32,971 nt of DNA, from IMG/VR virus record IMGVR_UViG_2541047885_000016; one strand, 5' to 3'. Position 1 is the first letter of the stretch; each line of letters starts with the position of its first letter. The notes beneath the pieces were generated by a model that was not told the origin of the DNA, did not search any database, and worked only from the letters and a program-made list of their open reading frames with translations. This DNA is from a virus (Duplodnaviria; Heunggongvirae; Uroviricota; Caudoviricetes). Of this stretch, positions 1-30,313 are shown piece after piece. Made by a program: the position numbers and the translations under genes.

Positions 1-1284
1 TTACAGACTTCTGGAAGGTTGCGCAGCTCTTACAACACGCGGTTGATCTTCCGCAGCGTCTTCCAGCGCACTTAAATCACGGTCTTTCACCTCTGGCATT
101 TTCAGCGCAGAGATTAAACCAATCACTGAATATGCCATGATCATAATGGCGATCGGATACCAGGATTCCGTCATGGTGCAGAAAATACCCGCCAGGATAG
201 GACCAAAACCGGAAGCGATAAGACCACCAATTTCTTTAGAAATAGCCATCCGGGTAAAGCGGTTTTTACAGCCGAACATTTCTGCCATGGTAATGTTTTC
301 CAGAGCAAATAATCCCAGCACCGCACAGTTATGAATCACAATCAGTGCAACCATAATGGTGCTCGGGGCATAGCTTTTATCTACAATGATAGAAAGCATT
401 GGCCATGCCAGCACAATCGCGGAGGTATTCATAATAATATACGGGATCCGGCGACCAATTTTATCGGATAACCAACCAAGGAACGGAATGGTCATAAAGC
501 CGAGAATCGAACTGATCATCAATGCATCTGTTGGAATTGCTTTGTTAAACAATAACGTCTGCACTAAATAGCCTGCAAGGAAAGTCTGAATTAACCCGGA
601 GTTACCCGCCTGACCAAAACGCAGCCCTGTTGCCAGCCAGAAGGATTTGCTCTGGAACATGCTACCAGCAGGTGCAGGTTTTGCTGTCGGTTGGTTACTG
701 TCGTTAACCTTCTCAAAGACCGGGCTTTCTTTCAGATTCATACGCAACCAGATAGCAAAGACCATCACGACAACGCTCGCCAGGAACGGTATACGCCATC
801 CCCACGCCAGCAGTTCCTCTTTACTGAGAATGAAGAACATAAAGGCCCAGATTGCCGTTGCGCTCAAGGTTCCGCAGTTAGTTCCCATAGCCACAAATGA
901 GGAGATAATTCCGCGCTTACCTTTTGGCGCATATTCCGCCAGCATCGTACCGGCACCGGAAATTTCCGCACCTGCACCCAACCCCTGAATAATACGCAAC
1001 GTCACCAGCAAGATGGGTGCAAAAACACCAATCTGTGCATAGGTCGGTAACACACCAATTAAGGTGGTACAGATCCCCATCATGGTGATGGTAATAAAGA
1101 GCACTTTTTTACGCCCTATTCTGTCGCCCATTTTGCCGAAAATAAATGCTCCGACAATACGCGCCACATAACCTGCACCGTAGGTTCCCATTGCCAGAAT
1201 TAACGCCATTGCCGTTGATGATTCAGGAAAAAATATTTCATGAAACACTAACGCTGCGCCGAGCGAATATAACTGGAAATCCAT
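1..1284 (-). CDS. ydfJ: MFS-superfamily metabolite:H+ symporter (ProP-like); host gene flanking the prophage
   Basis: 427-aa ORF from the track; many hydrophobic TM segments; MFS loop motif GKMGDRIGRKK between TM2 and TM3; stop at 1..3; in-frame stop immediately upstream of Met1. Symbol assigned from recalled Qin-locus gene order. Confidence 0.75.
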   Translation of the reverse strand: MDFQLYSLGAALVFHEIFFPESSTAMALILAMGTYGAGYVARIVGAFIFGKMGDRIGRKKVLFITITMMGICTTLIGVLPTYAQIGVFAPILLVTLRIIQGLGAGAEISGAGTMLAEYAPKGKRGIISSFVAMGTNCGTLSATAIWAFMFFILSKEELLAWGWRIPFLASVVVMVFAIWLRMNLKESPVFEKVNDSNQPTAKPAPAGSMFQSKSFWLATGLRFGQAGNSGLIQTFLAGYLVQTLLFNKAIPTDALMISSILGFMTIPFLGWLSDKIGRRIPYIIMNTSAIVLAWPMLSIIVDKSYAPSTIMVALIVIHNCAVLGLFALENITMAEMFGCKNRFTRMAISKEIGGLIASGFGPILAGIFCTMTESWYPIAIMIMAYSVIGLISALKMPEVKDRDLSALEDAAEDQPRVVRAAQPSRSL

Positions 1285-2618: not shown

Positions 2619-3209
2619 ATGTCTCGAATTTTTGCTTACTGTCGGATATCAACGCTGGATCAGACCACCGAAAATCAACGCCGGGAAATCGAAAGTGCAG
2701 GTTTTAAAATCAAACCTCAGCAAATAATCGAAGAACACATTAGCGGCTCAGCAGCAACCAGTGAGCGTCCTGGTTTTAACCGGTTGCTTGCTCGCCTGAA
2801 ATGTGGTGATCAATTGATTGTGACAAAATTGGATCGCCTTGGTTGTAATGCAATGGATATCAGGAAAACAGTGGAACAACTGACCGAAACAGGTATCAGA
2901 GTGCATTGCTTAGCATTGGGGGGCATTGACCTGACCAGTCCAACAGGAAAAATGATGATGCAAGTAATTTCAGCAGTCGCTGAATTTGAACGAGACCTTT
3001 TACTTGAACGCACTCATTCCGGGATAGTAAGAGCCCGGGGCGCAGGGAAACGTTTTGGTCGACCACCTGTGTTAAATGAAGAACAGAAACAGGTGGTATT
3101 CGAACGGATTAAGTCAGGTGTAAGTATAAGTGCCATTGCCCGGGAATTCAAAACCTCGCGGCAAACCATTTTAAGAGCCAAAGCAAAACTTCAGACACCT
3201 GACATATAA
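2619..3209 (+). CDS. pin: serine recombinase, Pin/Gin/Hin-family DNA invertase
   Basis: 196 aa; N-terminal resolvase catalytic motif YCRISTLDQ (active-site Ser10); C-terminal helix-turn-helix region ([19 protein letters not shown]); typical invertase length. Confidence 0.9.
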
Positions 3210-4454: not shown

Positions 4455-4736
4455 TCACATCCAGCCACGAAGTTGATGCTCAACAACAACCGCGTATTTA
4501 TCGAATATTGACGATTTTTTTGCATCATTAATGATGCGCACGTTTACAAAATATCCGTCTTCCTTAACACATACCGGCTCGCCATCTTCAGTAAGTTCTC
4601 CGGTTTCTTTGTACACGTTACCTATCACGTCAATAAGAATATCATCCTGCATCGACTCGTCATCATAATAGCCAGCACTCTTCATAAAGGCCGAAAAGTC
4701 GGCCTTGTCTGTGAATTTGATAATTAAATCTCGCAT
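4455..4736 (-). CDS. 93-aa acidic hypothetical protein translationally coupled to stf
   Basis: Start codon overlaps the stf stop (ATGA at 4736); acidic composition; no hydrophobic segments; no family recognised. Confidence 0.55.
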   Translation of the reverse strand: MRDLIIKFTDKADFSAFMKSAGYYDDESMQDDILIDVIGNVYKETGELTEDGEPVCVKEDGYFVNVRIINDAKKSSIFDKYAVVVEHQLRGWM

Positions 4737-7114
4737 TATATTATCTCTCCCATTTGCGCATCGGTTAATTCTTTATGCCATATTCTAAAATTCCTGATAT
4801 AACCAAATAAATGACGTAAGCCGGCTGTAGTCTGGCCTCCAATCCTTATACCTGTAGCACCACTAACACTCTTCCACGTTGTTGATGCTGGTGTTGATAA
4901 AACCCCATTGCAGCCAGCCTGAAACTTGCCGTCGCTTTTTATTCTATATACAGCGATAATCTTTCTTGGGTAATTTCCAGGTGGAAATGATATTGGATTA
5001 CCAAATTGAACATATGGAGTTCCTACACTACCTGCTGTATTTCTGAATGCAAAAACAAAAGCGTCGTCTTTTGTTTTAAATCCTGTTATATCATAAATTC
5101 TAGGCGCGGAATTTGGTGCTATAGACCAATTTTTATTCACTTCAACCATGCAGGTTAAAGGTTTGCTGGCCATGTTATTTTTACAAGGCAATGTAACAAT
5201 ATCGCTTGCTCGCGTTGATGCAACTGTATCGGAAATGATAAAAGATGATGCGCATGAGCCGCCTTCAAATTGTGGTGTCGTAACATCCAAACATTCCCCG
5301 CCCAAATAAGTTCCAGGTGAAACAGGTGGAGCAATTTGGATCTGAGAGCCAACCATATTATCAATAGCTTCAGATTGATATGTAACCTCGAAATAAATCC
5401 ATCCATTAGATTCTTTCTCCGCTCGGGCGGTTATTCTTGCAGCCCCTCCTCCCGTTTTCCTAATGGACATATCTGTTATATTAAGATATGCATCTGCCAG
5501 ATAAAAATATGCGGACCCGTCATATCTTTCAAATCTTATACGACATTGTATATTAGCACTATCGCTTTTTACACGACATGATGTTGTAACATACTTTTCA
5601 GTTCCAGTAACATCGACACCTCTTCCTCCTGAAACCGCAGCGATATTCATTGTCGTATTTGTCCCAATTTTTTCGTCCTTTATTTGAAACCGCCCATAAG
5701 TAAAGCCAAACTCATCAACACCACTTTCTGTTATAGTTACACTTGTTGTAGCTCCCCACTTAGATGGCGTAAGTGAATTAAGATGATAGTTGGTTCTTTG
5801 TCCTTCAATCAGCAAACCTTCTCGTTCAAATCGCGGTTCGTCAACTTCAGCAACGGTTAATACTCCTGATTTATTAATGTATGTTGCACCTGATGCGCGT
5901 TTGAAGCTAACAACCTTATCGGATGGCATTTTAATAACATCATCACCTACAGTTATTTGCTTATAACCAGGCGAAAAGCCAGCAAGCATATCCAGTGAAT
6001 CGTTAAACGGTATCCACACATCGGGAAGCGGCTGCAAAACTTGTTTATACGGCTCCGCAGCCTGGCTTGCATACTCTCTGGCTGCGTCTTCACTTGCTTT
6101 TGCAGCCGTCTGGCTTGCAGCGGATGCTTTCGCCGAGTTAGCCGCCGCAGTCTCGCTCGCCTTTGCGTTGGTTTCACTGGTTTTTGCAGCTTTTTGACTG
6201 TTGGCTGATGCAGTGGCAGAAGAAGCCGCCGCACTTGCAGAACCAGCTGCGGCACTCTCGCTTTGGGCCGCTGCATCCTGACTGTTTTTCGCCGCAGTTT
6301 CGCTGGCTTTGGCATTCGTTTCGCTGGTCTTCGCTGCCGTCTGGCTGGACTTTGCGTTAGTTTCACTCGTCTTCGCTGCTTTCTGACTGTTAGCCGCAGC
6401 AGTTGCTGATCCAGCTGCTGAAGTCGCAGAACCGGCTGCCGCGCTCTCGCTTTGGGCTGCTGCAACCTGGCTGTTTTTTGCCGCAGTTTCACTGGCTTTG
6501 GCATTCGTTTCGCTGGTCTTCGCTGCCGTCTGGCTGGACTTTGCGTTGGTTTCGCTCGTCTTTGCGGCTGTCTCGCTGTTTTTCGCGTTGGTTTCTGATT
6601 TTTTGGCTGCTGTCGCGGAGTTTGCCGATGCAGTCTGTGAGGTCGCTGCCGCCTGTGCGCTGTTAGCTGCATTCGTTTCTGAGGTTTTCGCCGCGTTCTT
6701 CGATGATGCCGCTGCAGTTTCGGATTTCTTTGCCGCCGCTGCGCTCTGAGAGGCGGCTTCGGCGTTGCGTGCCGCTTCTTCCACCATTTCCTCAAAACGG
6801 CGCAATGCCTCCGGCATGACATCATCTTCCGTCATGGCACCGAGAAAATCATTCAGCGTACCTGGTCTGGAACCTTCATAGACGGTAATGGTCCCGGCAT
6901 GTGAAGGCGGAAAACCTTCAACCAGCAGGGTGACGCTGTACTGGCCATACTCAACATCCATGCTGTAACGTCCGGCTTCATCCGGATTTTCAGAAGCCAC
7001 CGTGTTCACCAGTACCGTGGTGCTGTTACGCTTTGCCTTCAGTTGAATAGTGCAGTTCTGTATTGGTTTTCCCGCACCATCTTTCAGCACACCTGAGATT
7101 TTTACTGCTGCCAT
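4736..7114 (-). CDS. stf: side tail fibre protein Stf: lambda-like N-terminus and Ala/Ser/Thr-rich repetitive shaft, non-lambda C-terminal region
   Basis: N-terminus MAAVKISGVLKDGAGKPIQNCTIQLKAKRNSTT... matches lambda Stf as recalled; preferred start ATG at 7112..7114 (track extends to a GTG at 7120); GGAG RBS; C-terminal ~450 aa differ from lambda and end ...FGYIRNFRIWHKELTDAQMGEII. Confidence 0.9.
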   Translation of the reverse strand: MAAVKISGVLKDGAGKPIQNCTIQLKAKRNSTTVLVNTVASENPDEAGRYSMDVEYGQYSVTLLVEGFPPSHAGTITVYEGSRPGTLNDFLGAMTEDDVMPEALRRFEEMVEEAARNAEAASQSAAAAKKSETAAASSKNAAKTSETNAANSAQAAATSQTASANSATAAKKSETNAKNSETAAKTSETNAKSSQTAAKTSETNAKASETAAKNSQVAAAQSESAAAGSATSAAGSATAAANSQKAAKTSETNAKSSQTAAKTSETNAKASETAAKNSQDAAAQSESAAAGSASAAASSATASANSQKAAKTSETNAKASETAAANSAKASAASQTAAKASEDAAREYASQAAEPYKQVLQPLPDVWIPFNDSLDMLAGFSPGYKQITVGDDVIKMPSDKVVSFKRASGATYINKSGVLTVAEVDEPRFEREGLLIEGQRTNYHLNSLTPSKWGATTSVTITESGVDEFGFTYGRFQIKDEKIGTNTTMNIAAVSGGRGVDVTGTEKYVTTSCRVKSDSANIQCRIRFERYDGSAYFYLADAYLNITDMSIRKTGGGAARITARAEKESNGWIYFEVTYQSEAIDNMVGSQIQIAPPVSPGTYLGGECLDVTTPQFEGGSCASSFIISDTVASTRASDIVTLPCKNNMASKPLTCMVEVNKNWSIAPNSAPRIYDITGFKTKDDAFVFAFRNTAGSVGTPYVQFGNPISFPPGNYPRKIIAVYRIKSDGKFQAGCNGVLSTPASTTWKSVSGATGIRIGGQTTAGLRHLFGYIRNFRIWHKELTDAQMGEII
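6188..6565 (-). repeat. tandem in-frame duplication (2 x 189 bp, 63 codons) within the stf shaft region
   Basis: The DNA block GCCGCAGTTTCGCTGGCTTTGGCATTCGTTTCGCTGGTCTTCGCTGCCGTCTGGCTGGACTTTGCGTT occurs at about 6291 and again at about 6480 (189 bp apart); the protein repeats AKTSETNAKSSQTAAKTSETNAKASETAAKNSQ.AAAQSESAAAGS twice. Confidence 0.75.
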
Positions 7115-7124
7115 ATCCACTCCA

Positions 7125-7178: not shown

Positions 7179-7778
7179 TCAGAATTTATAACCGACACCC
7201 ACGATGAAACCGTCAGTGCGCCAGTCACCACTGCCGGAGCCTTCATAAGCAATATCAATGGCCACGGATTCGGTCGGGTTAAACTGCACGCCAGCTCCCC
7301 ACGCCAGAGACGTGTTGCTGTGGCGATCATCATCACTTCCGGTCAGCACATCGTGCGTTTTCCCCTTGTTGTCAGTTACGCGGAGATAATCCCCGGAGAA
7401 CGTCGAAACACGGCTGTAAGCCATACCTGCCATCGCATAAGCACTGAACCATTCATTCACGCGTACAGATGGCCCCGCCATCATGCTGAACCAGCGGTTA
7501 CGCACTGAATCTTCATGCCAGCGGGTATCGCTGTAATGCGTTTTTTGCTCATCTTTGGCATTGGCATAACTGAATGACGTCACCAGCCCCAGCGTGTCCG
7601 TAAATTCATAACGGTATTTCACGTTAATCCCGTTCAGATTATCGCTGCCGGGAACGTTCGTCGAGGCATGAAGATACCCCGCGCTCAGCGTGGACTGATG
7701 TTCAGATGCCCATGCAGGCGCACCGGATACGGCCAGACAAATGGCTGCGGACAAAATGGCGGCATAAAGTTTACGCAT
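7179..7778 (-). CDS. lom: outer membrane beta-barrel protein Lom (Ail/Lom family)
   Basis: 199 aa; signal peptide MRKLYAAILSAAICLAVSGAPAWA; C-terminus ...IAYEGSGSGDWRTDGFIVGVGYKF matches lambda Lom as recalled. Confidence 0.9.
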   Translation of the reverse strand: MRKLYAAILSAAICLAVSGAPAWASEHQSTLSAGYLHASTNVPGSDNLNGINVKYRYEFTDTLGLVTSFSYANAKDEQKTHYSDTRWHEDSVRNRWFSMMAGPSVRVNEWFSAYAMAGMAYSRVSTFSGDYLRVTDNKGKTHDVLTGSDDDRHSNTSLAWGAGVQFNPTESVAIDIAYEGSGSGDWRTDGFIVGVGYKF

Positions 7779-7847
7779 AATTACCTCTCGCTTTTCTGCA
7801 ATAAAAAAGGCACCATTTCTGGTGCCCTTATATGGGTTATAACAATT

Positions 7848-8168
7848 TCAACGAATACTGATGCCGGAAGCGGCTTTTTTGGTCACAATCACCGTACAGT
7901 CGGTGATATTACCTGCCCGCTGATTGCCTTTATGGAAAACCTTAAACTCCAGAGTGACGCTTCCCCTGCCACTCGGCATATCAATAACCGCACTGTAGCT
8001 ACCGGGAATGGCCCCTTTAGTTTCTCTGGATGCGATTAATACACCGTTGCCGGTGGATTTCCACCACTGGTAATGGTCGGGGCCGTCAGGCGTTTCAGGA
8101 ACACGTCGTTCATGAATATCTGATCGCCCTGACCAACAAACATCGGTTTTGTGTTGCCATTCGCAGGA
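7848..8168 (-). pseudogene. out-of-frame remnant of the J C-terminal receptor-binding region
   Basis: A frame +1 relative to J is open from 8168 to the stop at 7848..7850; its last ~60 codons (...GAIPGSYSAVIDMPSGRGSVTLEFKVFHKGNQRAGNITDCTVIVTKKAASGISIR) resemble the extreme C-terminus of lambda J as recalled (...IVDMPAGRGNVILTF...VMVIKKQALGISVV); the upstream part of that frame is junk-like. Confidence 0.55.
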
Positions 8169-10969
8169 TTAACCATCGCAATCCTGTCCGCCGCCAGCAG
8201 CACCTGACTCTGCATGCCGTCAGGGGTGTTCTCAATACCGGCACCAATACCCGCGATATAAAGGCGTCCGTCCTGCATCTGCTGCAGCTTCACAGCCCAC
8301 ATGCTGTTCAGGTTATTATTTGTATCAACCTGAACCTTCTGTATCTGCTGAATTGCCGCACTCTGGTCTTCCAGTTTCTTATTGACGGTCTGCGTGATTT
8401 CATTGCTGACATGCGTAATGGACGTCCTGATTTCAGCCAGGTCAGGCGCAAGCTGACCGTTATCAATCTGCGTCCACAGCTCCTGAGCCAGATGGGTTTT
8501 CCCTATCTCGCCTTTGAAAAAATCCAGATAACCGGATGCATCATCACTCGGCTGACCAACAGCCTCCACGAATGCCGATTTGCCGACGGTGTTCACACTG
8601 CGAACGTAAAAATAATAATCATGGCCCGGTTTGATATTGATACTGGCAGCTATCCAGTACAGCGCCGTACCAAGATAGCGGGCTGTGGTTTCAACCTGCC
8701 TGATATCCGCAATCCGCTTTTCCGAGAACCAGAACTCAAACTGTACCGTCGGATCATAAACGGCAAGATGCGGCGTTGCGGTTATCTGAAAATAGCCCGG
8801 CGTCAGCTCAATCCGCGACGGTGCTGCCGGTGCGGCAATCCGGAACGATACCGATGCCGGATCGCCCTGCTGCCCCCAGGCATTTGCCGCCCGGACTGTC
8901 AGCCTGTAGTTTCCCAGCGCCAGTTGCGTGAAGCGGTATGTGGTTTCCGTCGTCCGGGCCGTGCTGACCAGCCGCTCACTGCCGTCGTCTGCTGCCACAG
9001 TCAGGCGAAGCATAAAGCTCACACCCTTCACCACCTTCGGCGTGTCCCATCGCGCCAGCACCTGATATTCCCCGCTGTCTGCAGTGACTTCGGCGGTCAG
9101 ATGCTGCACTGCTGGCGGCGTGACACCATTCACCGTGCCGCTCTGGTCACCGTCAAAGTGCGCCCCGTTATCCACGATGGCCTCTTTCTCCGGCACATGC
9201 TGCACGGCAGTGATGGCATACGTGCCGTCGTCGTTCTCACGGATACTCACGCAGCGGAACAGGCGCTGGCGCAGCGTCGGCAGCTTAAGCCCCCACACGC
9301 TGTATTCAGCAACACCGTCAGGAACCCGGCTCACTTTTACCTTCACGCCGTCGGTGACGGACTGAACCTCCACGCTGACCGGACTCCCCTGCCCGTCAAC
9401 CAGGCTTATCAGCGTGGTGCCGGAGGCTGGCAGCGTGATTTCACGGTCGAGCGTCAGTGTCCGCGTCTGGCTGTTCACCGCCAGCACGCGCCCACCGGTG
9501 CTGATGCCCGCATAGTCATCATCGCAGATTTCAATGACATCGCCCGGTACATGGCGAAGCCCTTCGGCACCCACGCTGAAGTCCACGGTCTGCGTTTCCA
9601 GCAGTTCTGTTTTAATCAGCCACAGCCCGGCTCGGTGCGCCTGCCCCCGACTGGTACAGCCAAACGCATCCATCTTCGTGACGTTACGACCGTAACGGGC
9701 AATGGCCTGCGTGTCCTCCACAAGCTCTGTCGCCGTCTCCCAGCCGTTATCCGGGTCAATCCAGTTCACCTCAACGGCATTATGGCGGTCCTTGAGGGCG
9801 CTGAAGCTGTAGCGGAACGGCGCGCCATCATCCGGCATCACCACATTACTGCGGTTATAGGTCCACACCTTATCCGACGGCCGGTCCTGCACGAACGTCA
9901 GCGTCTGCCCGTTCCATACCGGCATACAGCGCATCGCCGAGCAGAAATCACTGAGCACATCCCACGCCTTGCGCTGTGTGGTCAGGTACGCATTACAGGT
10001 GATGCGCGGCTCCGTGCCGCCAAAGCCGTCCGGCACTGACTGGTCGCAGTACTGGCCGATGACATACAGCGCCCATTTGTCCACATCCGCCGCACCAAGA
10101 CGTTTCCCCATGCCGTAGCGTGGATGGGTCAGCATATCCCACAGACACCAGGCCATGTTATTGCTGTATGCTGGCTTAAACGTTCCGTCCCAGATACCGC
10201 TGTATTGCCGCGTCTGCGGGTTATAGTTCGACGGCACCTGCAGAATGCGCCCGCGAAGATGATAATTACGGCTCACCTGCTGGCTGCCGAACTGCTCCGA
10301 GTCCACCTGCACGCCGACCAGTGCCGTGTTCGGGTAGCACTGTTTCACATCGATGATTTCTGTGTATGACGACCAGAGCGTTTTGTTCTGCAGCTGGTCT
10401 GTGGTGCTGTCCGGCGTCATCCTGCGCATCCGGATATTAAACGGGCGCGGCGGCAGGTTATCCACCACCACCGAGGCCAGATACTGCGACGTGGTTTTGC
10501 CCTTAATGGTGATGTCTTTTTCCGTCACCCAGCCACCGTTACGCTGTATCTGAACCAGCAGACGGACTTCCGACGGATTCCTGTCACCCTTTGAGGTGGT
10601 TTCCACCAGTGCCTGCACACCGAAGGTAAAGCGCAGACGGTCGATGTTTGCAGACGTGATGGTCCGGGTAATCGGCGTGTCGTACTTCACTTCCGTACCC
10701 AGCACCGTCTCGGAGCCGGAGGATTCAAACCCCTCCGGCGGTGTCTGCTCCTGCTCACCTGCCCGGAACACCACCGTGACGCCGGAGATATTGGTATTCC
10801 CCTCACTGTCCAGCACTGGCGTACTGTTCAGCAGCACACTTTTTAATCCGTCCACCGGACCTTCAATCGGCCCTTCACTGATGGCGTCTATCACGCTCAG
10901 CATCTGGGATGATTTCAGGTTGTCCTTCGCTTCGCGCGGGGTATGCCCCTTACTGCTGCCTTTACCCAT
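8036..10969 (-). CDS. J: tail tip host-specificity protein J, C-terminally truncated
   Basis: 976-aa ORF collinear with lambda J from [20 protein letters not shown]... to ...[23 protein letters not shown], then 3 codons and a stop; lambda J is 1132 aa from memory. Confidence 0.9.
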
Positions 10970-11029: not shown

Positions 11030-11701
11030 TCAGCGACCAATCACCACAACCTGACCACCATCCCCTTCGTCTGCCGTGCTGATCTCCTGAGAGACCACAC
11101 GAGACCCCACGCGCATTTCACCGTACAGAACAGGCAGAACATTGCCCTGGGCAACCATGTTATCCAGTGAGGAGAAATAGGTGTTCTGTTTGCCGTTATC
11201 CGTTGTCTGTGTACGGGGAGTTCTGGCTTTCGGTGCCAGCATCTGCGCCACACCACCGAGCACCATACTGGCACCGAGAGAAAACAGGATGCCGGTCATA
11301 CCACCGGCCCCAATGGCTGCCCCCCATGCTGCAAGGGTGGCCCCGGCGGTAAAGAATGATCCGGCAATGGCGGCAGCCCCCAGGACAATCTGGAATACGC
11401 CACCTGACTTGGCCCCGGCGACTCTGGGAACAATATGAATCACAGCGCCATCAGGCAGAGTCTCATGTAACTGCGCCGTTAATCCGGACGTGCTGACATC
11501 CTGCCCGGCAATCCGTACCTGATACCAGCCGTCGCTCAGTTTCTGACGAAACGCCGGGAGCTGTGTGGCCAGCGCCCGGATGGCTTCGGCTCCCGTTTTC
11601 ACACGCAGATCGATGCGGCGACCAAATCGTTGTAAATCCCCGTAAAGGCAGATGCGTGCCATGCCCGGTGACGCCAGAGGGAGTGTGTGCGTCGCTGCCA
11701 T
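11030..11701 (-). CDS. I: tail tip assembly protein I
   Basis: 223 aa; matches lambda gpI as recalled (MAATHTLPLASPGMARICLYGDLQRFGRRIDLRVKTGAEAIRALATQL...); overlaps the 3' end of K as in lambda. Confidence 0.9.
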   Translation of the reverse strand: MAATHTLPLASPGMARICLYGDLQRFGRRIDLRVKTGAEAIRALATQLPAFRQKLSDGWYQVRIAGQDVSTSGLTAQLHETLPDGAVIHIVPRVAGAKSGGVFQIVLGAAAIAGSFFTAGATLAAWGAAIGAGGMTGILFSLGASMVLGGVAQMLAPKARTPRTQTTDNGKQNTYFSSLDNMVAQGNVLPVLYGEMRVGSRVVSQEISTADEGDGGQVVVIGR

Positions 11702-12342
11702 TTGTCGGTATACCTCTCTCGTTTGCTCAGTTGTTCAGGAATATGGTGCAGCAGCTCGCCGTCACCACAGTAAATGGCGGCATGATTCGGCACCGATGAA
11801 CCAAAACAGCACAACAGCACATCGCCCGGTTGTGCTGATGACAACGGCACCTGATACAGCCCCGTGGCCTCCAGATTATCCAGATAGAGATTCTGACCGT
11901 TACGCCACCAGTCATCCCCGCGATGAAAATCCGGCATCTCAATCCCCGCCAGATGATAAGCATCCCGGAACAGCGTGTAACAGTCCGTCACCCCGTGCTC
12001 AAAGCGCCGCCCGGTGAGATGCGGCACACAGCGGAACTTATGAATCGTCCCCCGGCAGACCAGCCACCACGGCAAATCACTCTGCACCTGCAGCCGCCGG
12101 TCGGCCTCACTCAGCCAGGGCAGACCACCGGGGTGGCTGTGGACCAGCGCCACAATCTCACCCTGCATTTCTGCCTGCAGCCAGTCTTCCGGCGACAGCC
12201 TGAAATACGCCTCCGGCTTACCGGAGATATTCACACAGGGAAAATATCTTTCCCCTTCCGGCGTTCTCACCACGAAGCCGCACGACTCCGCTGGCGCACA
12301 TCGCCGGGCGTGCGCCAGAATCGCTGATTCTGTCTCTGTCAT
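11599..12342 (-). CDS. K: tail tip assembly protein K (MPN/JAMM plus NlpC/P60-like)
   Basis: Start set at MTETESAILAHARRC... (track ORF extends 14 codons further upstream; start uncertain); JAMM-like motif HSHPGGLPWLSEAD; matches lambda gpK as recalled. Confidence 0.85.
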   Translation of the reverse strand: MTETESAILAHARRCAPAESCGFVVRTPEGERYFPCVNISGKPEAYFRLSPEDWLQAEMQGEIVALVHSHPGGLPWLSEADRRLQVQSDLPWWLVCRGTIHKFRCVPHLTGRRFEHGVTDCYTLFRDAYHLAGIEMPDFHRGDDWWRNGQNLYLDNLEATGLYQVPLSSAQPGDVLLCCFGSSVPNHAAIYCGDGELLHHIPEQLSKRERYTDKWQRRTHSLWRHRAWHASAFTGIYNDLVAASICV

Positions 12343-12346
12343 GGGT

Positions 12347-13045
12347 TTACTGCGAAAGTTTGTTAATGGAAAGGAAGCCGCCAAAGTTACCGACGTTATT
12401 GCGGAACTTACATCCGCTCAGGCATTTGCTGCATTTATCCTTCGTGATATCGGACGTTGGCTGGTCATATTCATCCGCGACCGCCGGACCGTGATAACCG
12501 CACTCATCGCCGCGATAGGTCCAGGTGCAGGTGTTGGCCAGCATGATACGTCCCGGAAAAACAGCGCCGTCCGTTTCCGTCGACGTGGCCAGTACAAAGG
12601 AGGCACTGACCGCGCTCAGTTCGCTGCACTGCTCGATGCGCCAGTGGCTGATCACCTCCTGCTCCGGATCGGCGTCTCTGTTTCCGTTGACGAAGTTCAC
12701 CGCATCCAGAAAACGGGCGTAAACCTTACGCCTGACCACCGTTCCGCCGACCAGACTCTGCAGGTCTTCCGCCATCCCGGTGACCATGCCGTGCAGGTTA
12801 GAAACCGTCAGTGTCGGACGGGCAGCACTGCCCTTGCCATTCAGTTCAAATCCCGTCCCCTGAATGGGGTATGCCTGATACTGCCGCCCCTGCCAGGTAA
12901 CCGGCTCACCTTTTTCGTTCTGCTCATTACAGAAAAAATAACGTTCTCCACCGACCTCTGTCAGATCGATTTCCCAGAGCACCACGCTGGCCGACTGCTC
13001 CGCACGGGTGCATTCATTCAGTGTTTCCTGCCGGATATCCTGCAT
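12347..13045 (-). CDS. L: tail tip protein L
   Basis: 232 aa; matches lambda gpL as recalled (MQDIRQETLNECTRAEQSASVVLWEIDLTEVGGERYFFCNEQNEKGEP...). Confidence 0.9.
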   Translation of the reverse strand: MQDIRQETLNECTRAEQSASVVLWEIDLTEVGGERYFFCNEQNEKGEPVTWQGRQYQAYPIQGTGFELNGKGSAARPTLTVSNLHGMVTGMAEDLQSLVGGTVVRRKVYARFLDAVNFVNGNRDADPEQEVISHWRIEQCSELSAVSASFVLATSTETDGAVFPGRIMLANTCTWTYRGDECGYHGPAVADEYDQPTSDITKDKCSKCLSGCKFRNNVGNFGGFLSINKLSQ

Positions 13046-13374
13046 CAGTTCACCACCTGTTCAAACTCTGCGCTGAACTCAACACGCAGCATACTGACCC
13101 GCGACGACCATTTTGCGCAGGTCACCTTTATCTGCCGCCACTCATAAGGCGGCGTCCACAGAAAGGATTTCCAGCCCCCGTGCTCAGCCAGAAACGACTC
13201 AAGCGCCGTGGCCTCCCAACGGGGAACAGAAAGCGTCACGCTGTACGTTTTCAGGTCAGCGTTCAGCCCGGCAGGCGCTCGCTGGGAATAGCCATCACCA
13301 AAGCGCACCTTTCTTACAGAAGGGACCGAAGCCACATCCATACCGGGTTTCACTTTCCAGCGGAAGGTCTTCAT
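13045..13374 (-). CDS. M: tail tip protein M
   Basis: 109 aa; matches lambda gpM as recalled; start/stop overlaps with H and L. Confidence 0.9.
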   Translation of the reverse strand: MKTFRWKVKPGMDVASVPSVRKVRFGDGYSQRAPAGLNADLKTYSVTLSVPRWEATALESFLAEHGGWKSFLWTPPYEWRQIKVTCAKWSSRVSMLRVEFSAEFEQVVN

Positions 13375-15950
13375 CGTCCACCTCCGGAGAACAGGCCACC
13401 ATCACGCATCTGTGTCTGAATTTCATCGCGGGCACCCTTGCGGGCCATGTCATACACTGCTTTCATCATCTGTGGACCTGGCAGACCATTCGTACCGTCG
13501 TTCTGAATCACCACGTTGTTGTTCTGCTCAAACCTGATACCCTCTGAACGCCGCATTTGCGCCGGACTTCCGGTGCCACCGACATAACCGCCGGTGGCAT
13601 AGCCGCGCATCAGCCGGTAGAGATTTCCCACGCCAATCCGGCTGGTTGCCTCCTTCGTGAAGACAAATTCACCACGGTGAACAATCCCCGCTGGCTCATA
13701 TTTGCCGCCGGTTCCCGTAAATCCTCCGGTTGCAAAATGGAATTTCGCCGCAGCGGCCTGAATGGCTGTACCGCCTGACGCGGATGCGCCGCCACCAACA
13801 GCCCCGCCAATGGCGCTGCCGATACTCCCGACAATCCCCACCATTGCCTGCTTAAGCAGAATTTCTGTCATCATGGACAGCACGGAGCGGGTGAAGCTGC
13901 GCCAGTTCTGCTCACTGCCGGTCAGCATCGCCGCCATATTCTGTGCAATACCATCAAAGGTCTGCGTGGCTGCACTTTTTACCTGCGACATACTGTCCGT
14001 GGCGCTCTCTTCCCACTCTCTCCAGCCGGACCTGAGGCCTGCCATCCAGCTCCCGCGAAGCTGGTCTTCAGCCGCCCAGGTCTTTTTCTGCTCTGACATG
14101 ACGTTATTCAGCGCCAGCGGATTATCGCCATACTGTTCCTTCAGGCGCTGTTCCGTGGCTTCCCGTTCTGCCTGCCGCTCAGTCAGCCCCCGGCTTTTCG
14201 CATCAATGGCGGCCCGTTTTGCCCGTTGCTGCTGTGCGAATTTATCCGCCTGCTGCGCCAGCGCGTTCAGGCGCTCCTGATACGTAACCTTGTCGCCAAG
14301 TGCAGCCAGCTGGCGTTTGTACTCCAGCGTCTCATCTTTATGCGCCAGCAGGGATTTCTCCTGTGCAGACAGCTGGCGACGTTGCGCCGCCTCCTCCAGT
14401 ACCGCGAACTGACTCTCCGCCTTCCACAAATCCCGGCGCTGCTGGCTGATTTTCTCATTTGCTCCGGCATGCCTCTCCAGCGTCCAGAGTTCAGCCTGAA
14501 GCGTCAGCAGGGCAGCATGAGCACTGTCTTCCTGACGATCGCCCGCAGACACCTTCACGCCGGACTGTTTCGCCTTTTTCAGCGTCGCTTCATAGTCCTT
14601 TTTCGCCGCCGCCATCAGCGTGTTGTAATCTGCCTGCAGAATTTTCCCGTCCTTCAGTGCCTTGTTCAGTTCTTCCTGACGGGCGGTATATTTCTCCAGC
14701 GGCGTCTGCAGGCGTTCATAAGCCTTCTGCGCCTCTTCGGTATATTTCAGCCGTGATGCCTCAGACTCGGCCCAGTCCTTTGCTGCCATCTCTCTGGCCT
14801 TTTCAAGATCGGCCTGCAACGTGGCGGCTGAAAGCCCAAGTTGCGCATTCGCTCTGTCCTCCCATGCTCCCCGGAGATTGGCAAGAAATGCGGATGTTTT
14901 ACCGCGCCGGTGGCTCCGGCTCTGATACCACTGCCATTTTTTGTCCGCCTCATCAAAAGCCTTTTCTGCTTTCTCCAGCATTTCCCGGGCAGTGTCCGGG
15001 CGACCAATATCCAGCACCGAATCCCACATGGATTTGAATGCCCGTGCTGTCCTGTCTGCCCAGGTCTCCAGCGTGCCCATGTTCTCTTTCAGGCGGCGGG
15101 TCTGGTCATCAAACCCTTTCGTTGCGGCCTCGTTCGCCGCCTGCAATGCCCCGGCTTCATCTCCGGAACGCTGCAACTGAGCAACATACGCAATCTGCTC
15201 CGCCGTCACGTTATGGAACTGACGTGCCATCGCTGTCAGTCCCGACGTCGGGTCTGTGGTCAGCTTCCCGAAGGCTTCAGCGACCTTGTCCACCTCCACG
15301 CCGGATGCAGAGGAGAAACGCGCCACACTCTGGCTGATCGCCTCAAACTGCTCACCACCACGCACACCGGCATTCACCAGCGCCGTCAGTGACTCGCTGG
15401 TCTGGTTAAACGTCAGCCCTGCCGCCTGCCCGGCTCTGGACAGGGCCAGAATACGATCTGCCGTCAGTCCCGCCTGATTGCCGGAAAGGACCAGCGTTTT
15501 GTTGAAATCGGACAGGGTTGAGTTGCCCTGATACCAGGCATACGCCAGCGCACCGGTCGCCACCGCCAGCGAGGTGGCCCCCACCATCGGCAGGGTGATC
15601 GCACCGGCAAGCCCCCTGAACATGGGGATCATCCCGCCGAAGGAGTCCTTAACCTGACCACCCTGTTGCAGCAGGATCAGCCACGGACTTTGCCCGCCTG
15701 CAAGCTGCGTGGCCACGTCGGTGAACTGTGCAGGCAGCATACGCATGGCGGCTTTATACTGCCCGACGGAAATCCCCGCTTTCTGTGCAGCCAGCGCCTG
15801 TCGGCTCAGCGACTGTTCAACGACTGCCGCTGTTTTTTTCGCATCACTTTCCGTACCGGAAAAATGACGCCTGACTCTGGCCATCTGCTCGTCAAATCTG
15901 GCCGCATCCAGACTCAAATCAACGACCAGATCGCCTACCGGTTCAGCCAT
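13371..15950 (-). CDS. H: tail tape measure protein H
   Basis: 859 aa; N- and C-terminal regions match lambda gpH as recalled (MAEPVGDLVVDLSLDAARFDEQ... / ...MRDGGLFSGGGR); a central segment of about 60 aa differs. Confidence 0.9.
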   Translation of the reverse strand: MAEPVGDLVVDLSLDAARFDEQMARVRRHFSGTESDAKKTAAVVEQSLSRQALAAQKAGISVGQYKAAMRMLPAQFTDVATQLAGGQSPWLILLQQGGQVKDSFGGMIPMFRGLAGAITLPMVGATSLAVATGALAYAWYQGNSTLSDFNKTLVLSGNQAGLTADRILALSRAGQAAGLTFNQTSESLTALVNAGVRGGEQFEAISQSVARFSSASGVEVDKVAEAFGKLTTDPTSGLTAMARQFHNVTAEQIAYVAQLQRSGDEAGALQAANEAATKGFDDQTRRLKENMGTLETWADRTARAFKSMWDSVLDIGRPDTAREMLEKAEKAFDEADKKWQWYQSRSHRRGKTSAFLANLRGAWEDRANAQLGLSAATLQADLEKAREMAAKDWAESEASRLKYTEEAQKAYERLQTPLEKYTARQEELNKALKDGKILQADYNTLMAAAKKDYEATLKKAKQSGVKVSAGDRQEDSAHAALLTLQAELWTLERHAGANEKISQQRRDLWKAESQFAVLEEAAQRRQLSAQEKSLLAHKDETLEYKRQLAALGDKVTYQERLNALAQQADKFAQQQRAKRAAIDAKSRGLTERQAEREATEQRLKEQYGDNPLALNNVMSEQKKTWAAEDQLRGSWMAGLRSGWREWEESATDSMSQVKSAATQTFDGIAQNMAAMLTGSEQNWRSFTRSVLSMMTEILLKQAMVGIVGSIGSAIGGAVGGGASASGGTAIQAAAAKFHFATGGFTGTGGKYEPAGIVHRGEFVFTKEATSRIGVGNLYRLMRGYATGGYVGGTGSPAQMRRSEGIRFEQNNNVVIQNDGTNGLPGPQMMKAVYDMARKGARDEIQTQMRDGGLFSGGGR

Positions 15951-16377
15951 ACCGGACTCCTCCTGCGATCCCTTCTGATACTGTCATCAGCATTACGTCA
16001 TCCTCCGTCATGTCCGCCACATCCGGGGAAGTAGGGATAACTTCATTCCCGTCCGGGCCAAAGCGGACACCTCCGGCAAGCCCTGCCGCTTTCTGCATCA
16101 GCACATCATCTTCAGGCTCCTCGTCAGCCTCGCGCCGGTTCAGCAAACTGAAATCCAGCGGATGCATATCCGGATCGCTGAAAAACAGGCTGAGCACGGT
16201 GTACGTCAGCCCGGAAAAGTGCATATCCAGCAGAACATCATGAAAATAATGGGTACTGTAAAAGCGGTGCCAGTCGGCATACTCCGTGGATGACATCCCG
16301 GCAAGCATGGCACGCCAGTCGGGTCGCCCCATCTCACGCGCCAGTTTCAGGGCAAAACTCAGCTCACCGTCGAACAC
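15943..16377 (-). CDS. T: T portion of the G-T tail assembly chaperone, expressed by -1 frameshift from G
   Basis: ORF in the -1 frame overlapping the 3' end of G; no ATG or RBS of its own (track start is a GTG); sequence FDGELSFALKLAREMGRPDWRAMLAGMSS... matches lambda gpT as recalled. Confidence 0.85.
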   Translation of the reverse strand: MFDGELSFALKLAREMGRPDWRAMLAGMSSTEYADWHRFYSTHYFHDVLLDMHFSGLTYTVLSLFFSDPDMHPLDFSLLNRREADEEPEDDVLMQKAAGLAGGVRFGPDGNEVIPTSPDVADMTEDDVMLMTVSEGIAGGVRYG

Positions 16378-16781
16378 TTTCCCGCAGAAACAGGCTCTGC
16401 AGGCCCGGCGTCCTCTGTCTGTTCAGGGGTATTATTCACAACAAACTCATACATACCAGACAGCCGGTACACCACGTTTTCAGCATGAGAAATTGCCTCC
16501 GTGGGCCAGGTGGTAAGCACTTCCTGCTCAATCTGTTTAACGGCTTCATTCATGGACGGCATCTGCGTCTTCTGCGGATGGTTATGCCACAGGGACATCG
16601 CCACCAGAAACGCGCCGGTTCTGATGGCGTCTTCCACAGTAAACTTCCGGTTGCTGTCTGACTCCGCCTGTTCTGCCTGCCGTTTCATCAGGGCGAGATG
16701 CTCAATACGCTGCAGGGCTGACAGTTCAGAAAGCGTGACGGTCACACCGTTATGTTCAAATGATTCGGTTTTCAGGAACAT
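16359..16781 (-). CDS. G: tail assembly chaperone G
   Basis: 140 aa; matches lambda gpG as recalled; contains the slippery heptamer near its 3' end. Confidence 0.9.
   Translation of the reverse strand: MFLKTESFEHNGVTVTLSELSALQRIEHLALMKRQAEQAESDSNRKFTVEDAIRTGAFLVAMSLWHNHPQKTQMPSMNEAVKQIEQEVLTTWPTEAISHAENVVYRLSGMYEFVVNNTPEQTEDAGPAEPVSAGKCSTVS
16377..16383 (-). other. programmed -1 ribosomal frameshift slippery heptamer G GGA AAG (G to G-T fusion)
   Basis: Minus-strand GGGAAAG read as gcG GGA AAG in the G frame, 5 codons before the G stop; the -1 frame continues into T. Confidence 0.8.
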
Positions 16782-16796
16782 CTCTGACTCTCCGGA

Positions 16797-17537
16797 TTAA
16801 CTGGCGGTGACGGTGATTTCTGCAACCGCAGCAAACTCACCATTACCGGATACGACCGGAATGTTGACCTTACCTGCAGCAACGCCATTCACGGTGATGG
16901 TCATACCACTGACCGACACGGTGGCTTTTGTTTTATCCGCTGACACCGCACGGAAGCTCTTGTCGGTTGCGCCTTCCGGCTGGAATGCCACGGTCAGCGT
17001 GGTGCTCTTCCCTTTCACTACGGAAGCGCTGGCTGGCGTCACGGTCATACCGGTTGCCGCTGTTACCGTGCTGCGATCTTCTGCCATCGACGGACGTCCT
17101 ACGTTGGTGACTTTCACCGTGCGGGTGATCACGTCCTTCGCCGTCACCGCCTTACCGATACTGCTGACCCAGCCGCGGAACACATCGACCGTGCCGTTCG
17201 GGAAGCGGATTTTATAGGCACGGGTATCACCTTCATTAAACCACGCCAGCAGCGCCTGCTGCCCCTGCTCTCCGGGCATCCACGCCAGCGTGAAGCTGGT
17301 ATCTCCGGCAGATTTCTGCCCCTGTCCGGTCGCGGTCCAGTCCGCATCTTCATCATCGAGATAACTGTCGTCATAGGACTCAGCGGTCAGTTCGCCGGGC
17401 GTCAGGTCTTTAACCTTTGCCAGACGCGACCAGTCATTGTCTGAAAGCGGGTTTGCATAAGGGTCGCCGCTCCCGTTATAAACCCACAGTGTGGTCCCGG
17501 CCCCTTTCACCGGTGCCAGAGGATTTGGTGTTGGCAT
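16797..17537 (-). CDS. V: major tail tube protein V
   Basis: Start set at [20 protein letters not shown]... (track ORF has a 10-codon upstream extension); 246 aa; matches lambda gpV as recalled. Confidence 0.9.
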
Positions 17538-17544
17538 ATCGTCC

Positions 17545-17940
17545 TCACATTTCATAGGTAATGACATAAGTCAGATCGGCTGAACTCCACAGGCCCGCAT
17601 CATCGTCGCGCCGGTAGTCATAGCCACTGGCCACCATACTGGTGATCAAATCTGACAGTGCCGGGATATCGCTCATCACCGGATAAATCCGGGACTCCAT
17701 CCACGAATCCAGCTCTGAATCCGGCACCTGAGCAGGCAGGAAAACTTCAATATGCAGCTCCGCCTGCCAGGTATCGCTGTCCAGCTCTTCGCCCGTGTAT
17801 TCAGCGCCGGTGAGATAAACGGCAATTGCCGGAAAATCTTCCTCATCAAAAACAGCGGGGCGACCATCAAAAAGCGTCGCCCCGGTGTCATGCTTCTCCA
17901 GTGCATCCAGTACGGCTGCACGGAGTTCAGTATGTTTCAT
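17545..17940 (-). CDS. U: tail terminator protein U
   Basis: 131 aa; [31 protein letters not shown]... matches lambda gpU as recalled. Confidence 0.9.
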
Positions 17941-18515
17941 CGCTTTATTACCATTCTCAGTTGATGCTGCAGCGCATAGCCCAGCTCTTTCGGAAGACGC
18001 TCACGCCGTATCCGCTCAATATTCTGTTTAAACGCCGTGGTCAGCGGCACCGCCATCGGAATTTTCACCACATCAATGGGGTAACGGTTTTTCCCGGCCA
18101 CACGCTGCATGACATGCCACCGGCCATTTTTCAGTTGCTGAATAAACGCGCCGGGAATACGACGGTTTCCCACCACAAGCACGCTGCCGCCACCTTTCAG
18201 GGATGAACGCTGCCCCTTTTTACGACGCCTGCGGCGGGACAGGACAACCCGCGCATTACCCAGCTTGATTACGGGCAAATCCCCCCGGTTAACCCTGATT
18301 CTGGCCTGCGGATTTTTGACCGTGGCCCTTTTCAGCCTGGCCCTTTCCTTTACCAGTTTCCGGCGTACCTTTGTCTCACGGGCAACCTGTGACGCCGACT
18401 GCGATATCGCGGATGAAGCAACGCGGTTAATGGCCATTGCGGCGGCACCGGGCACCGCCGTTTTGCTGATACGGCTGAGGTTTTCAACGGCCTGCTCAAG
18501 ACCTTTTATGGCCAT
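17937..18515 (-). CDS. Z: tail completion protein Z
   Basis: 192 aa; matches lambda gpZ as recalled; ATGA overlap with U. Confidence 0.9.
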   Translation of the reverse strand: MAIKGLEQAVENLSRISKTAVPGAAAMAINRVASSAISQSASQVARETKVRRKLVKERARLKRATVKNPQARIRVNRGDLPVIKLGNARVVLSRRRRRKKGQRSSLKGGGSVLVVGNRRIPGAFIQQLKNGRWHVMQRVAGKNRYPIDVVKIPMAVPLTTAFKQNIERIRRERLPKELGYALQHQLRMVIKR

Positions 18516-18526
18516 ACATCCCCCTT

Positions 18527-18880
18527 TCAGCGGCGACGGTTAACGGCAGGCGGTACGCCCCGCCCAAGCCAGAGATGACAGCTTCCGCCATCATCCGGCG
18601 AAATCCGGTCTATCCAGAAGTTTTCCTCACCGATGGTTAGCGTGTCGCCGCGCCGCAGCTGCCGCACATCATCAGTCCGGACAAACAGGGACGGGCTGGA
18701 GCCTTCAACGCGTACGCCCTGTCCGGCATAGCTGATATTTTCAGGGTCATCAAAAACACCACGTATTACTGCGCCGGACTGCTCACCGGATGTCATGGTG
18801 GCTGACGTTCCCATGTACCCGCGTATCGTTTCATCGGCGCGGGCAATGGCAGCATCGAACAGGTTATCGAAATCAGCCAC
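18527..18880 (-). CDS. FII: head-tail joining protein FII
   Basis: 117 aa; MADFDNLFDAAIARADETIRGYMGTSATMTSGEQSGAVIRGVFDDPENISYAGQGVRVEGSSPSLFV... matches lambda gpFII as recalled. Confidence 0.9.
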   Translation of the reverse strand: MADFDNLFDAAIARADETIRGYMGTSATMTSGEQSGAVIRGVFDDPENISYAGQGVRVEGSSPSLFVRTDDVRQLRRGDTLTIGEENFWIDRISPDDGGSCHLWLGRGVPPAVNRRR

Positions 18881-18891
18881 AGCGCCTCCCG

Positions 18892-19287
18892 TTATTGCAT
18901 TCTGGCCAGGCCACGTTCTGTCATTTCGGCTGCCACACCGGCAGAGACACGAAACGCCGTTCCCGGCAGCACAAATGCCACAGCCTCATCCCGCGTGACG
19001 TGAAGTGCATCGGTATGCAGCGTCACCAGTGCCACAACCGTGACCAGAGCAGCCGTATCAGTCACGGAATCCGGCTGTGCTGATACCACCTCATTTTCAT
19101 GTCCGGTCAGCGCATTTTCCGGGCTGACAGACGTGTCCTGACCGGCTGCGTCATCCGTGTCATCAAGCTCCTCTTCCAGCTCTGCCACACGGAGCGCCAG
19201 TTCTTCTTTCGTCCCCGTCAGGCTGACATCACGGTTCAGTTGCTCACCCAGCGACCGGAGACGGGCAATCAGTTCATCTTTCGTCAT
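18892..19287 (-). CDS. FI: DNA packaging / head completion protein FI
   Basis: Start set at MTKDELIARLRSLGEQLNRD... with GGAGGAG RBS (track ORF has a 13-codon upstream extension); 131 aa. Confidence 0.85.
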   Translation of the reverse strand: MTKDELIARLRSLGEQLNRDVSLTGTKEELALRVAELEEELDDTDDAAGQDTSVSPENALTGHENEVVSAQPDSVTDTAALVTVVALVTLHTDALHVTRDEAVAFVLPGTAFRVSAGVAAEMTERGLARMQ

Positions 19288-19328
19288 GGACTCCTCCACA
19301 GAGAGAAAATGGCCCCGAAGGGCCATGA

Positions 19329-20354
19329 TTACGCCAGTTGAACGGACACGAACTCATCAGGGTCAGCCAGCAGCATCAGCGGTGCTGACTGAATCATGGT
19401 GAACTCACGCGCCGGGTCGCCGGTGGTCACCCAGTTTTTCGGGTAACGGGCAGAGGCGTTAATGCCTTCGCGCTGTGCGTCCGCATCCTGAATGCAACCA
19501 TAGGTGCGCAGACCGCGTGCCTGAGTGTTCCCCAGCACCATCGTGTTGTCCGGCAGGAAGTTCTTTTTGACGCCGTTTTCCACGTACTGTCCGGAATACA
19601 CGACGATGGCCACATCGCCATACATTCCCTTATAAGACACCGCTTTGCCCAGGTCTTTTACCGCTGTCTCCAGCTCGGAATGAGAGCCGCGACGGGTATC
19701 CAGCTTCTCCTTGACGGCCTTGAAGGAACGGAACAGCGCCCAGCCTTTCGGATCAAACACGATGATATTCACCACACCGCTGGCGTTCAGCGCGTAGGCT
19801 TCGATATCGTCGGTCGGGTCATACGTGGACTTGTCACGCTTGCTCCACTCTGTGCCGCCGGACTGCGTGATGTTATTCGCCGCACTGCGGCCCATATCCA
19901 CCTCAACCGGATCGAAGGCTTCACCGGTCATGGTGTATTTGCCCTTAAGCACGGCAGAAACTGCCTGCATCTCTTCGACCTGGGCAATCGCCAGATTTTC
20001 ATCCAGCATATTCTGCCGAATAATACGGCGACGACGGTAAGCCGGGTCAGCCAGGTTCTGCGGATCTTCATCCGGCAGGCGACGCAGGGTCATCTGCGGA
20101 TTCACCTCATGCTTGGGTTTGACATAACCCGGCGTAAATTCAGAGGTGGAGCCGCCACGGGATCGGATAACCTCACCGGAAACAATCGGCGAAACGTACA
20201 GCGCCATGTTTACCAGTCCCGGAATTTGTGAGAGATAGACTTTTTCCGTGGTGAAAGGATAGGTTTCACGGAAAAACAGGCGCAGAAACAGCGGATCGAA
20301 CTTAAAGTGATGCTGGGTCGATGCCAGTAATTCTGCAGTTGTATATACAGACAT
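19329..20354 (-). CDS. E: major capsid protein E
   Basis: 341 aa; matches lambda gpE as recalled along its length. Confidence 0.95.
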   Translation of the reverse strand: MSVYTTAELLASTQHHFKFDPLFLRLFFRETYPFTTEKVYLSQIPGLVNMALYVSPIVSGEVIRSRGGSTSEFTPGYVKPKHEVNPQMTLRRLPDEDPQNLADPAYRRRRIIRQNMLDENLAIAQVEEMQAVSAVLKGKYTMTGEAFDPVEVDMGRSAANNITQSGGTEWSKRDKSTYDPTDDIEAYALNASGVVNIIVFDPKGWALFRSFKAVKEKLDTRRGSHSELETAVKDLGKAVSYKGMYGDVAIVVYSGQYVENGVKKNFLPDNTMVLGNTQARGLRTYGCIQDADAQREGINASARYPKNWVTTGDPAREFTMIQSAPLMLLADPDEFVSVQLA

Positions 20355-20367
20355 AAATTATTTCCAT

Positions 20368-20388
20368 AAAAAAAGCCGCACAGGCGGC
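20368..20388 (-). terminator. terminator-like hairpin plus U-run between D and E
   Basis: Stem GCCGC/GCGGC with a 4-nt loop followed by U7 on the minus strand, 14 nt upstream of the E start; may be a partial terminator or mRNA-stability element. Confidence 0.35.
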
Positions 20389-20409
20389 CTTTGTTGATGA
20401 AGGGGAAGA

Positions 20410-20742
20410 TTAAACGATGCTGATTGCCGTTCCGGCAAACGCGGTCCGTTTTTTAGTCTCGTCGCTGGCAGCCTCCGGCCAGAGCACATCCTCATAACGA
20501 AACGAGCCGGACTTGTAGAACGTCAGTGTGGTGCTGGTCTGGTCAGCAGCAACCGCCAGAATGCCAACGGCTGCACCGTCGGTGGTGCCATCCCACACAA
20601 CCAGCTTACGGGTAGTGCCATCCAGCATCAGCGGGGTCATTGCAGGCGTTTTCGCACTCAATCCGCCAGGCGCAATTGCTGTATGAGCCGGATCACTGTT
20701 ACCCAGCGGCTGGTAATGGTTAAACTCTTCTTTTGTCGCCAT
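20410..20742 (-). CDS. D: capsid decoration protein D
   Basis: 110 aa; [42 protein letters not shown]... matches lambda gpD as recalled. Confidence 0.95.
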
Positions 20743-20751
20743 AACTGCCTC

Positions 20752-22063: not shown

Positions 22064-22083
<20 letters not shown>
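20752..22083 (-). CDS. C: capsid assembly protease C (scaffold Nu3 is expected to be nested in-frame in its 3' part)
   Basis: Start set at the GTG giving VTAELRNLPHIASMAFNEPLML... with GGAGGAG RBS (track extends 49 codons upstream); 443 aa; matches lambda gpC as recalled; overlaps the 3' end of B. Confidence 0.85.
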
Positions 22084-25764
<3,681 letters not shown>

Positions 25765-25790
<26 letters not shown>

Positions 25791-26932: not shown

Positions 26933-26989
26933 AGCAATTTAGATAATCGTGCAGACTACGCCCCCTCATATCACATGGAAGGTTTATCT

Positions 26990-28973: not shown

Positions 28974-29997
<1,024 letters not shown>

Positions 29998-30001
<4 letters not shown>

Positions 30002-30309: not shown

Positions 30310-30313
30310 TGGA

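Follow-up and report, generated by a model that had tools for sequence, protein, structure and literature searches.

A 376-bp deletion and a lineage-specific J pseudogene in the decaying prophage DNA of an Escherichia coli lineage

A phage gene that follows its relatives for most of its length and then stops short raises the question of whether it is broken, has been put to another use, or has merely been misread. The gene considered here encodes the tip attachment (host specificity) protein J and lies within a window of 32,971 nucleotides, that is, the whole stretch of DNA analysed, which is an IMG/VR record classified among the Caudoviricetes. The J reading frame occupies 8036..10969 on the minus strand and, as taken from the list of open reading frames, is 977 residues long. 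Residues 1-974 are collinear with an intact J of 1165 residues and in the minus-strand translation end with ...GGNPPA; these are followed by TVY, three residues derived from a frameshift, and by a stop codon at 8036..8038. A first-pass annotation, which had only the DNA letters to go by, placed the frame and its TVY-stop ending correctly (both are borne out by the list of reading frames and by the translation) and gave about 1132 residues for lambda J, which is the length of chain 8iyk_J in the PDB; its count of 976 residues for the present frame is one too few. The 977-residue protein is exactly GenBank EQW94312.1, deposited as a 'phage tail protein' of E. coli UMEA 3139-1.

The surroundings of the gene are in order. 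On the minus strand the tail-tip genes run I-J-lom-stf, so that J occupies its expected operon position between I and lom/stf: upstream is an intact gene for tail assembly protein I (11030..11602, minus strand, 190 residues), and downstream are an intact lom gene (7179..7778, minus strand), encoding an Ail/Lom outer-membrane protein of 199 residues (PF06316), and an intact stf-like side tail fibre gene (4736..7120, minus strand) with an open reading frame of 794 residues. (Inside stf, positions 5900-6830 hold long repeats rich in Ala, Ser and Thr, of the kind ...KTSETNAK..., copies of which are about 84% identical at an offset of 189 nt.) The J lesion is a discrete one, because a tblastn comparison of the annotated proteins of E. 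coli TO6 with the window gives full-length, collinear matches for every other structural gene from Nu1 to I (11030..26310), J being the sole exception.

The nature of this lesion is revealed by alignment with five intact alleles, namely those of phi458, E. coli A0 34/86, TO6, NCTC86 and phage PhiR49_1. Against all five there is a gap of 376 bp, the flanks of which are 99.7-100% identical to the intact sequences. The junction lies at 8048..8049 (minus strand), where ...CCACCGGC is joined directly to AACGGTG...; 376 bp of intact J are gone from between them. In the alignment with phi458 and A0 34/86 the gap is clean at 376 nt and the flanks differ by two synonymous changes only, and NCTC86 and PhiR49_1 each match at 40 of 40 positions on either side of the junction. 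The missing stretch corresponds to 125 codons plus one nucleotide and removes residues 975-1099 of the 1165-residue protein. Hence the features by which a pseudogene is recognised are all present: orthologues are collinear on both sides, the gap is not a multiple of three, a premature stop occurs three codons past the junction, and the remainder, though out of frame, is still recognisable. An internal deletion with a frameshift had been proposed in the first-pass annotation, and the five alignments uphold it, while enlarging its size from roughly 0.3 kb to 376 bp.

The end points of the deletion have almost nothing in common. Relative to the five intact alleles, the junction can be moved by one nucleotide rightwards and by none leftwards, which means that the A at 8048 may be assigned to either side; apart from this 1-nt microhomology, no direct repeats are found at the end points in those alleles. 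Short direct repeats, for which the neighbourhood of 8040..8050 had seemed a likely place, are thus lacking there, and such repeats as do occur around the junction inside the window are short and attributable to chance. Because the junction slides by only a single nucleotide, the event is best described as an illegitimate deletion without direct repeats.

What remains beyond the junction is an out-of-frame J 3' remnant (7848..8048, minus strand), consisting of 66 codons (8048..7851) and the native stop codon (7848..7850). These 66 codons are residues 1100-1165 of the intact 1165-residue J, that is, the second half of its Ig-like receptor-binding domain. Their translation is 100% identical to residues 1072-1137 of the annotated intact gpJ of E. 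coli TO6, and their DNA is the same, in the alignment, as that of phi458 and A0 34/86. In addition, the 66-residue remnant matches positions 67-134 of the 135-position profile PF12421 (E = 5e-10), out of frame with J. Because of the identity to TO6 gpJ and of this profile match, its resemblance to the J C terminus is judged to lie far beyond chance. On the 5' side of 8048 the same frame merely reads J in the wrong register, and an in-frame TAA at 8171..8169 closes it. The first-pass annotation had come close to all of this, having noted about 60 J-like codons before the stop at 7848..7850 and a frame that was junk-like upstream of about 8045 and closed at 8169..8171. It had also given a J-lom spacer of 257 bp, which agrees with the distance from the J stop to the lom start in the coordinates of the two genes; in intact relatives the spacer is 69 bp. 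An intrinsic, terminator-like hairpin (AAGGGCACCAGAAATGGTGCCTTT and then a run of T) at 7806..7829 on the minus strand is native, lies 3' of the old J stop and has survived the deletion; in phage Ayreon a terminator is annotated under the stretch that matches it.

The consequences for the protein can be read from its Pfam domains. Within the J of the window are FNIII-A_GpJ (PF24801) at residues 86-207 (E = 9e-42), Phage-tail_3 (PF13550) at 330-498 (E = 2.5e-43), Ig_J (PF24421) at 610-714 (E = 5e-42) and Ig_J_second (PF24489) at 716-818 (E = 4e-40). Phage_Tail_Tip (PF09327), by comparison, is incomplete: residues 872-968 cover profile positions 1-99 of 139, versus positions 1-138 in an intact relative. 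In the intact J of phi458, PF09327 spans 872-1000 and Ig_GpJ_C (PF12421), described as 'C-terminal receptor binding domain', spans 1029-1164; this last domain is absent from the 977-residue product, profile positions 1-66 having been deleted. (The limits of the receptor-binding domain are those of Pfam; the main texts of three lambda gpJ structure papers give no residue boundaries.) Because PF09327 stops at position 99 of 139 and no PF12421 follows, the product is without the end of the beta-prism central fibre and without the whole of the Ig-like receptor-binding domain, in keeping with the loss of the receptor-binding region that had been proposed from the letters. In lambda it is the C-terminal part of gpJ that binds LamB (PMC3509688), and contact by the receptor-binding domain starts rearrangements that pass through the fibre and open the tail tip (PMC11101478).

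Two other features of this protein family may be recorded here. At about residues 836-863 (window 8360-8470), where lambda residues 836-845 are aligned, J is longer than lambda gpJ by 28 residues; the additional residues are also present in its intact relatives, phi458 among them, and sit near the alpha-helical shaft, lambda residues 841-861 having been named as shaft helices (PMC11101478). Moreover, intact J proteins of 1137 and of 1165 residues are both known with the same type of C terminus.

The explanation favoured here, with high confidence, is that a single 376-bp deletion made J a pseudogene within a decaying ('grounded') Qin-type prophage of an E. coli lineage that includes UMEA 3139-1. 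According to this model, one illegitimate deletion of 376 bp, with end points sharing 1 nt, would have struck the 3' part of J in a prophage residing at ydfJ. The J product retains the hub, the FNIII and Ig domains, the alpha-helical shaft and the greater part of the beta-prism fibre, and ends three residues past the junction; of the receptor-binding domain, the second half persists only as DNA that is out of frame and untranslated. Tails carrying such a J would be expected neither to bind an outer-membrane receptor nor to trigger the opening of the tail tip, so that the prophage would not spread by infection and would be transmitted only vertically.

The residence at ydfJ is indicated by both the edge and the content of the window. 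At its left end (1..1284, minus strand) is ydfJ without its 5' end, 427 residues long, which in Qin-type prophages is the side of the chromosomal attachment site and is 100% identical to a TO6 gene annotated as 'missing N-terminus'. Qin integrates at the 5' end of ydfJ, and Qin-type prophages at that site are widespread, size-variable and defective, and have been called 'grounded prophages' (PMC6379469). The Qin markers follow one another in canonical order (ynfT, ydfK, pinQ, nohA, ynfO, ydfO, gnsB, ynfN, cspI, rzpQ, rrrQ, ydfR, essD, cspB, cspF, ydfT), and their proteins are 100% identical in amino acid sequence to the TO6 annotation, except for nohA at 98.9%. By these marks the window holds a prophage of Qin type at ydfJ, of which intQ' and the early region lie beyond the window's right end. 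Between the lysis and the packaging genes (26699-32011) there is Qin cargo, comprising the cold-shock paralogues cspI, cspB and cspF together with gnsB, ynfN, ydfO and ynfO, all of whose proteins are 100% identical to those of TO6. At the other end, the invertase gene pinQ (2619..3209, plus strand) adjoins tail-fibre C-terminal and assembly cassettes, and a 16-nt inverted repeat (2528-2543 and 4604-4619) encloses 2060 nt; the stretch thus bracketed resembles the segment that PMC12529663 describes as invertible by PinQ.

How far the deleted allele extends beyond this one record was explored by several routes. An exact-protein look-up, which proved far more productive than scans with a 24-nt junction sequence, finds the 977-residue protein on at least 24 contigs, which belong either to three NCBI assemblies or to assemblies of gut metagenomes, the latter with at least six different study or run labels among them. 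The window itself is 100% identical to the UMEA 3139-1 scaffold over the 22.9 kb compared. In all 10 of the loci first fetched, the junction is the same and the remnant plus spacer, 271 nt in all, is identical; a further locus (L017) is likewise identical across it. Because the look-up returns identical proteins only, no conclusion on selection follows from the invariance of the truncated reading frame. With a 621-nt query across the region, matches are obtained in 198 phage records and in 4,529 of 5,426 complete E. coli genomes; every best match falls into two pieces, which in the record extend over 997 nt, 376 more than in the query. As a single piece, the junction occurs in none of 50,697 phage records and in none of the 5,426 complete genomes. 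The junction 24-mer has one match in IMG/VR, none in a one-genome-per-species collection and none in JGI metagenome contigs. The first-pass annotation had named two findings either of which would refute its reading, namely full-length, functional J homologues that naturally have the same ending and a downstream frame without similarity to J C termini; among the 50,697 phage records no J ends as it does in the window, and the downstream frame is unmistakably a J C terminus.

Other short J proteins exist in the databases. Those of 944-1012 residues within the same 90% cluster turn out to be contig-end partials or N-terminally cut gene calls and not the same allele; among the cluster members P0003, P0008, P0010 and P0013, many entries of 944-973 residues are contig-end partials that end near ...GGNPP, which is the border between the conserved body of J and its variable receptor-binding part. 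Because these partials stop near that border, the short J proteins of the databases are mostly assembly breaks.

The prophage carries further lesions. At the right end of the window, ydfT, which encodes a Q-like late antiterminator, is cut after codon 148: only a 3' fragment matches (32436..32741, minus strand; codons 149-250), and homology to ydfT ends at about window position 32743. The interruption is due to the end of an IS3-family insertion sequence (32744..32971, minus strand), the matching stretch of which is annotated as an IS3 family transposase, and a reading frame there containing ...LATLTWVDWYNNRRLLERLGHTPPAEAEKAYY... has what we take to be the typical C terminus of an IS3-family OrfB. 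As one contiguous piece, the exact IS3/ydfT junction is absent from the complete E. coli genomes. The insertion constitutes a second inactivating lesion, which should prevent expression of the late operon. A third kind of loss is seen in contigs L016 and L020 (1-850), which come from two different ENA assemblies; there about 740 nt of unrelated DNA stand in place of window 20120..26326, that is, of Nu1, A, W, B, C, D and the 5' end of E, and the same J deletion is kept. Head genes have thus been lost in a sublineage.

The order of these events can be approached through the flanking chromosome. Among the six deletion-bearing contigs that reach it, the 3.2-kb ydfJ-ydfI-ydfZ flank shows 0-1 nt differences, which fits descent within one host lineage, a 3.2-kb flank being short for a proof of clonality. 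The prophages themselves differ in patches, with most of the differences falling within H, lom, stf and the fibre cassettes, a pattern suggestive of patchy recombination with different prophages or of chimeras in the metagenome assemblies. From the near-constant flank, together with the later patches and the loss of head genes, it follows that the J deletion is older than the later changes and was carried vertically while the element kept decaying.

An alternative is that the shortened J still works, with tails being built on its intact hub and Stf fibres (whose tips are PinQ-invertible) handling both recognition and triggering, so that the element spreads or acts in the manner of a tailocin. 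There is a precedent in Gifsy-1, a lambda-like phage, for which a Stf-only route of adsorption and ejection has been claimed on smooth Salmonella (PMC12312913), and, with an intact stf present (4736..7120), a J stripped of its receptor-binding domain is not necessarily lethal. In the window, moreover, stf is intact, as are the fibre cassettes downstream of it and pinQ, all other head and tail genes are full length, and the deleted allele has lived long enough to turn up in many samples. Against this, however, the late antiterminator gene is split by IS3 in the window; sublineages with the same J deletion are without terminase, portal, protease and decoration genes; and the chromosomal flank is constant in all contigs reaching it, as vertical descent predicts. 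Nor does the new end of J resemble a neat terminus, being instead an untidy frameshift that leaves half a domain intact and unread. Finally, the deleted allele is found in 0 of 50,697 phage records, whereas plaque-forming phages, PhiR49_1, phi458 and Ayreon among them, have the intact one. A functional short J is therefore regarded as very improbable, and the narrower proposal that a Stf-dependent phage or tailocin-like particle might persist in those lineages that keep head genes and a working late antiterminator as slightly less probable still.

Given that the prophage is best read as a decaying one with a J pseudogene, it may nevertheless be asked whether J is intact in reality, the 376-bp gap having arisen through misassembly of J copies repeated among prophages. 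E. coli genomes do carry J-like sequence repeatedly, the median being 2 places, and many J proteins in the databases are labelled 'partial', their contigs breaking near the boundary between conserved and variable parts. The identical junction, however, recurs in at least 24 contigs from different assemblers, the assemblies concerned including isolates, metaSPAdes (NODE), MEGAHIT (k141 and k127) and a JGI assembly, and collapse of a de Bruijn graph is not expected to create a join at 1 nt of homology. Because so many independent assemblies agree and the junction shares only one nucleotide, misassembly is excluded for practical purposes. The deleted J allele is an inherited state of the prophage and not a sequencing error.

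No more credible is recoding, in which a programmed -1 frameshift at the junction would yield a J with an internal deletion of 125 residues: the remnant frame is indeed open for 66 codons to the native stop and stands at -1 relative to the J frame, but by inspection ...GGA AAT CCA CCG GCA ACG GTG TAT TAA lacks a slippery heptamer X XXY YYZ and the frameshifted product would carry no more than the latter half of the Ig-like domain, which are the reasons for setting it aside, and the arrangement of frames stems from a recent deletion that is seen in a single lineage.

The feature is accordingly a lineage-specific J pseudogene and an instance of ordinary cryptic-prophage decay, that is, of a well-known kind of event in a sequence already public. 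Its importance beyond annotation is small: EQW94312.1, now a 'phage tail protein', should be flagged as a J pseudogene, and the prophage should count as defective in work on prophage prediction or host range. The 24-nt junction ATCCACCGGCAACGGTGTATTAAT offers a handy means of tracing this E. coli lineage in metagenomes of the gut. More generally, the locus provides a small and clean case of stepwise decay, involving the J deletion, an IS3 element in the antiterminator gene and, in a sublineage, the loss of head genes.

Among known systems, the closest structural reference is lambda gpJ (PDB 8IYK, 8XCG, 8XCJ/8XCK), with which residues 1-974 of the J in the window align end to end, starting from residue 1 of 8iyk_J; an intact relative aligns with lambda gpJ over its whole length (E = 0, 2139 bits). 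As far as the central fibre the two agree in their Pfam architecture, and they also share the gene order ...H-M-L-K-I-J-lom-stf. By a count from the alignment, the stop in the window corresponds to about residue 946 of the 1132 in lambda, so that in comparison with lambda the receptor-binding domain is missing. The type of receptor-binding domain carried by the intact allele is itself unlike that of lambda and is closest to PDB 9wca, 'A8 gpJ 713'; a receptor for this type was looked for and not found. Intact J genes of the same type occur in phi458 (OP434518), PhiR49_1 (PV340568), cdtI, Ayreon and ev099, and in E. coli NCTC86, A0 34/86 and TO6. These share 97-100% DNA identity with the window on both sides of the junction and have identical last 66 codons, and they carry the 376 bp, encoding proteins of 1137-1165 residues with a complete PF12421.

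The closest relatives of the element as a whole are Qin of K-12 and the larger prophages at ydfJ, which share the integration site and the order of cargo and lysis genes, and which decay in the same way, through deletion and IS insertion. Qin of K-12 is without the whole head-tail module. The copy in the window, in contrast, keeps a full lambda-like head-tail module, in which J is the sole broken structural gene.
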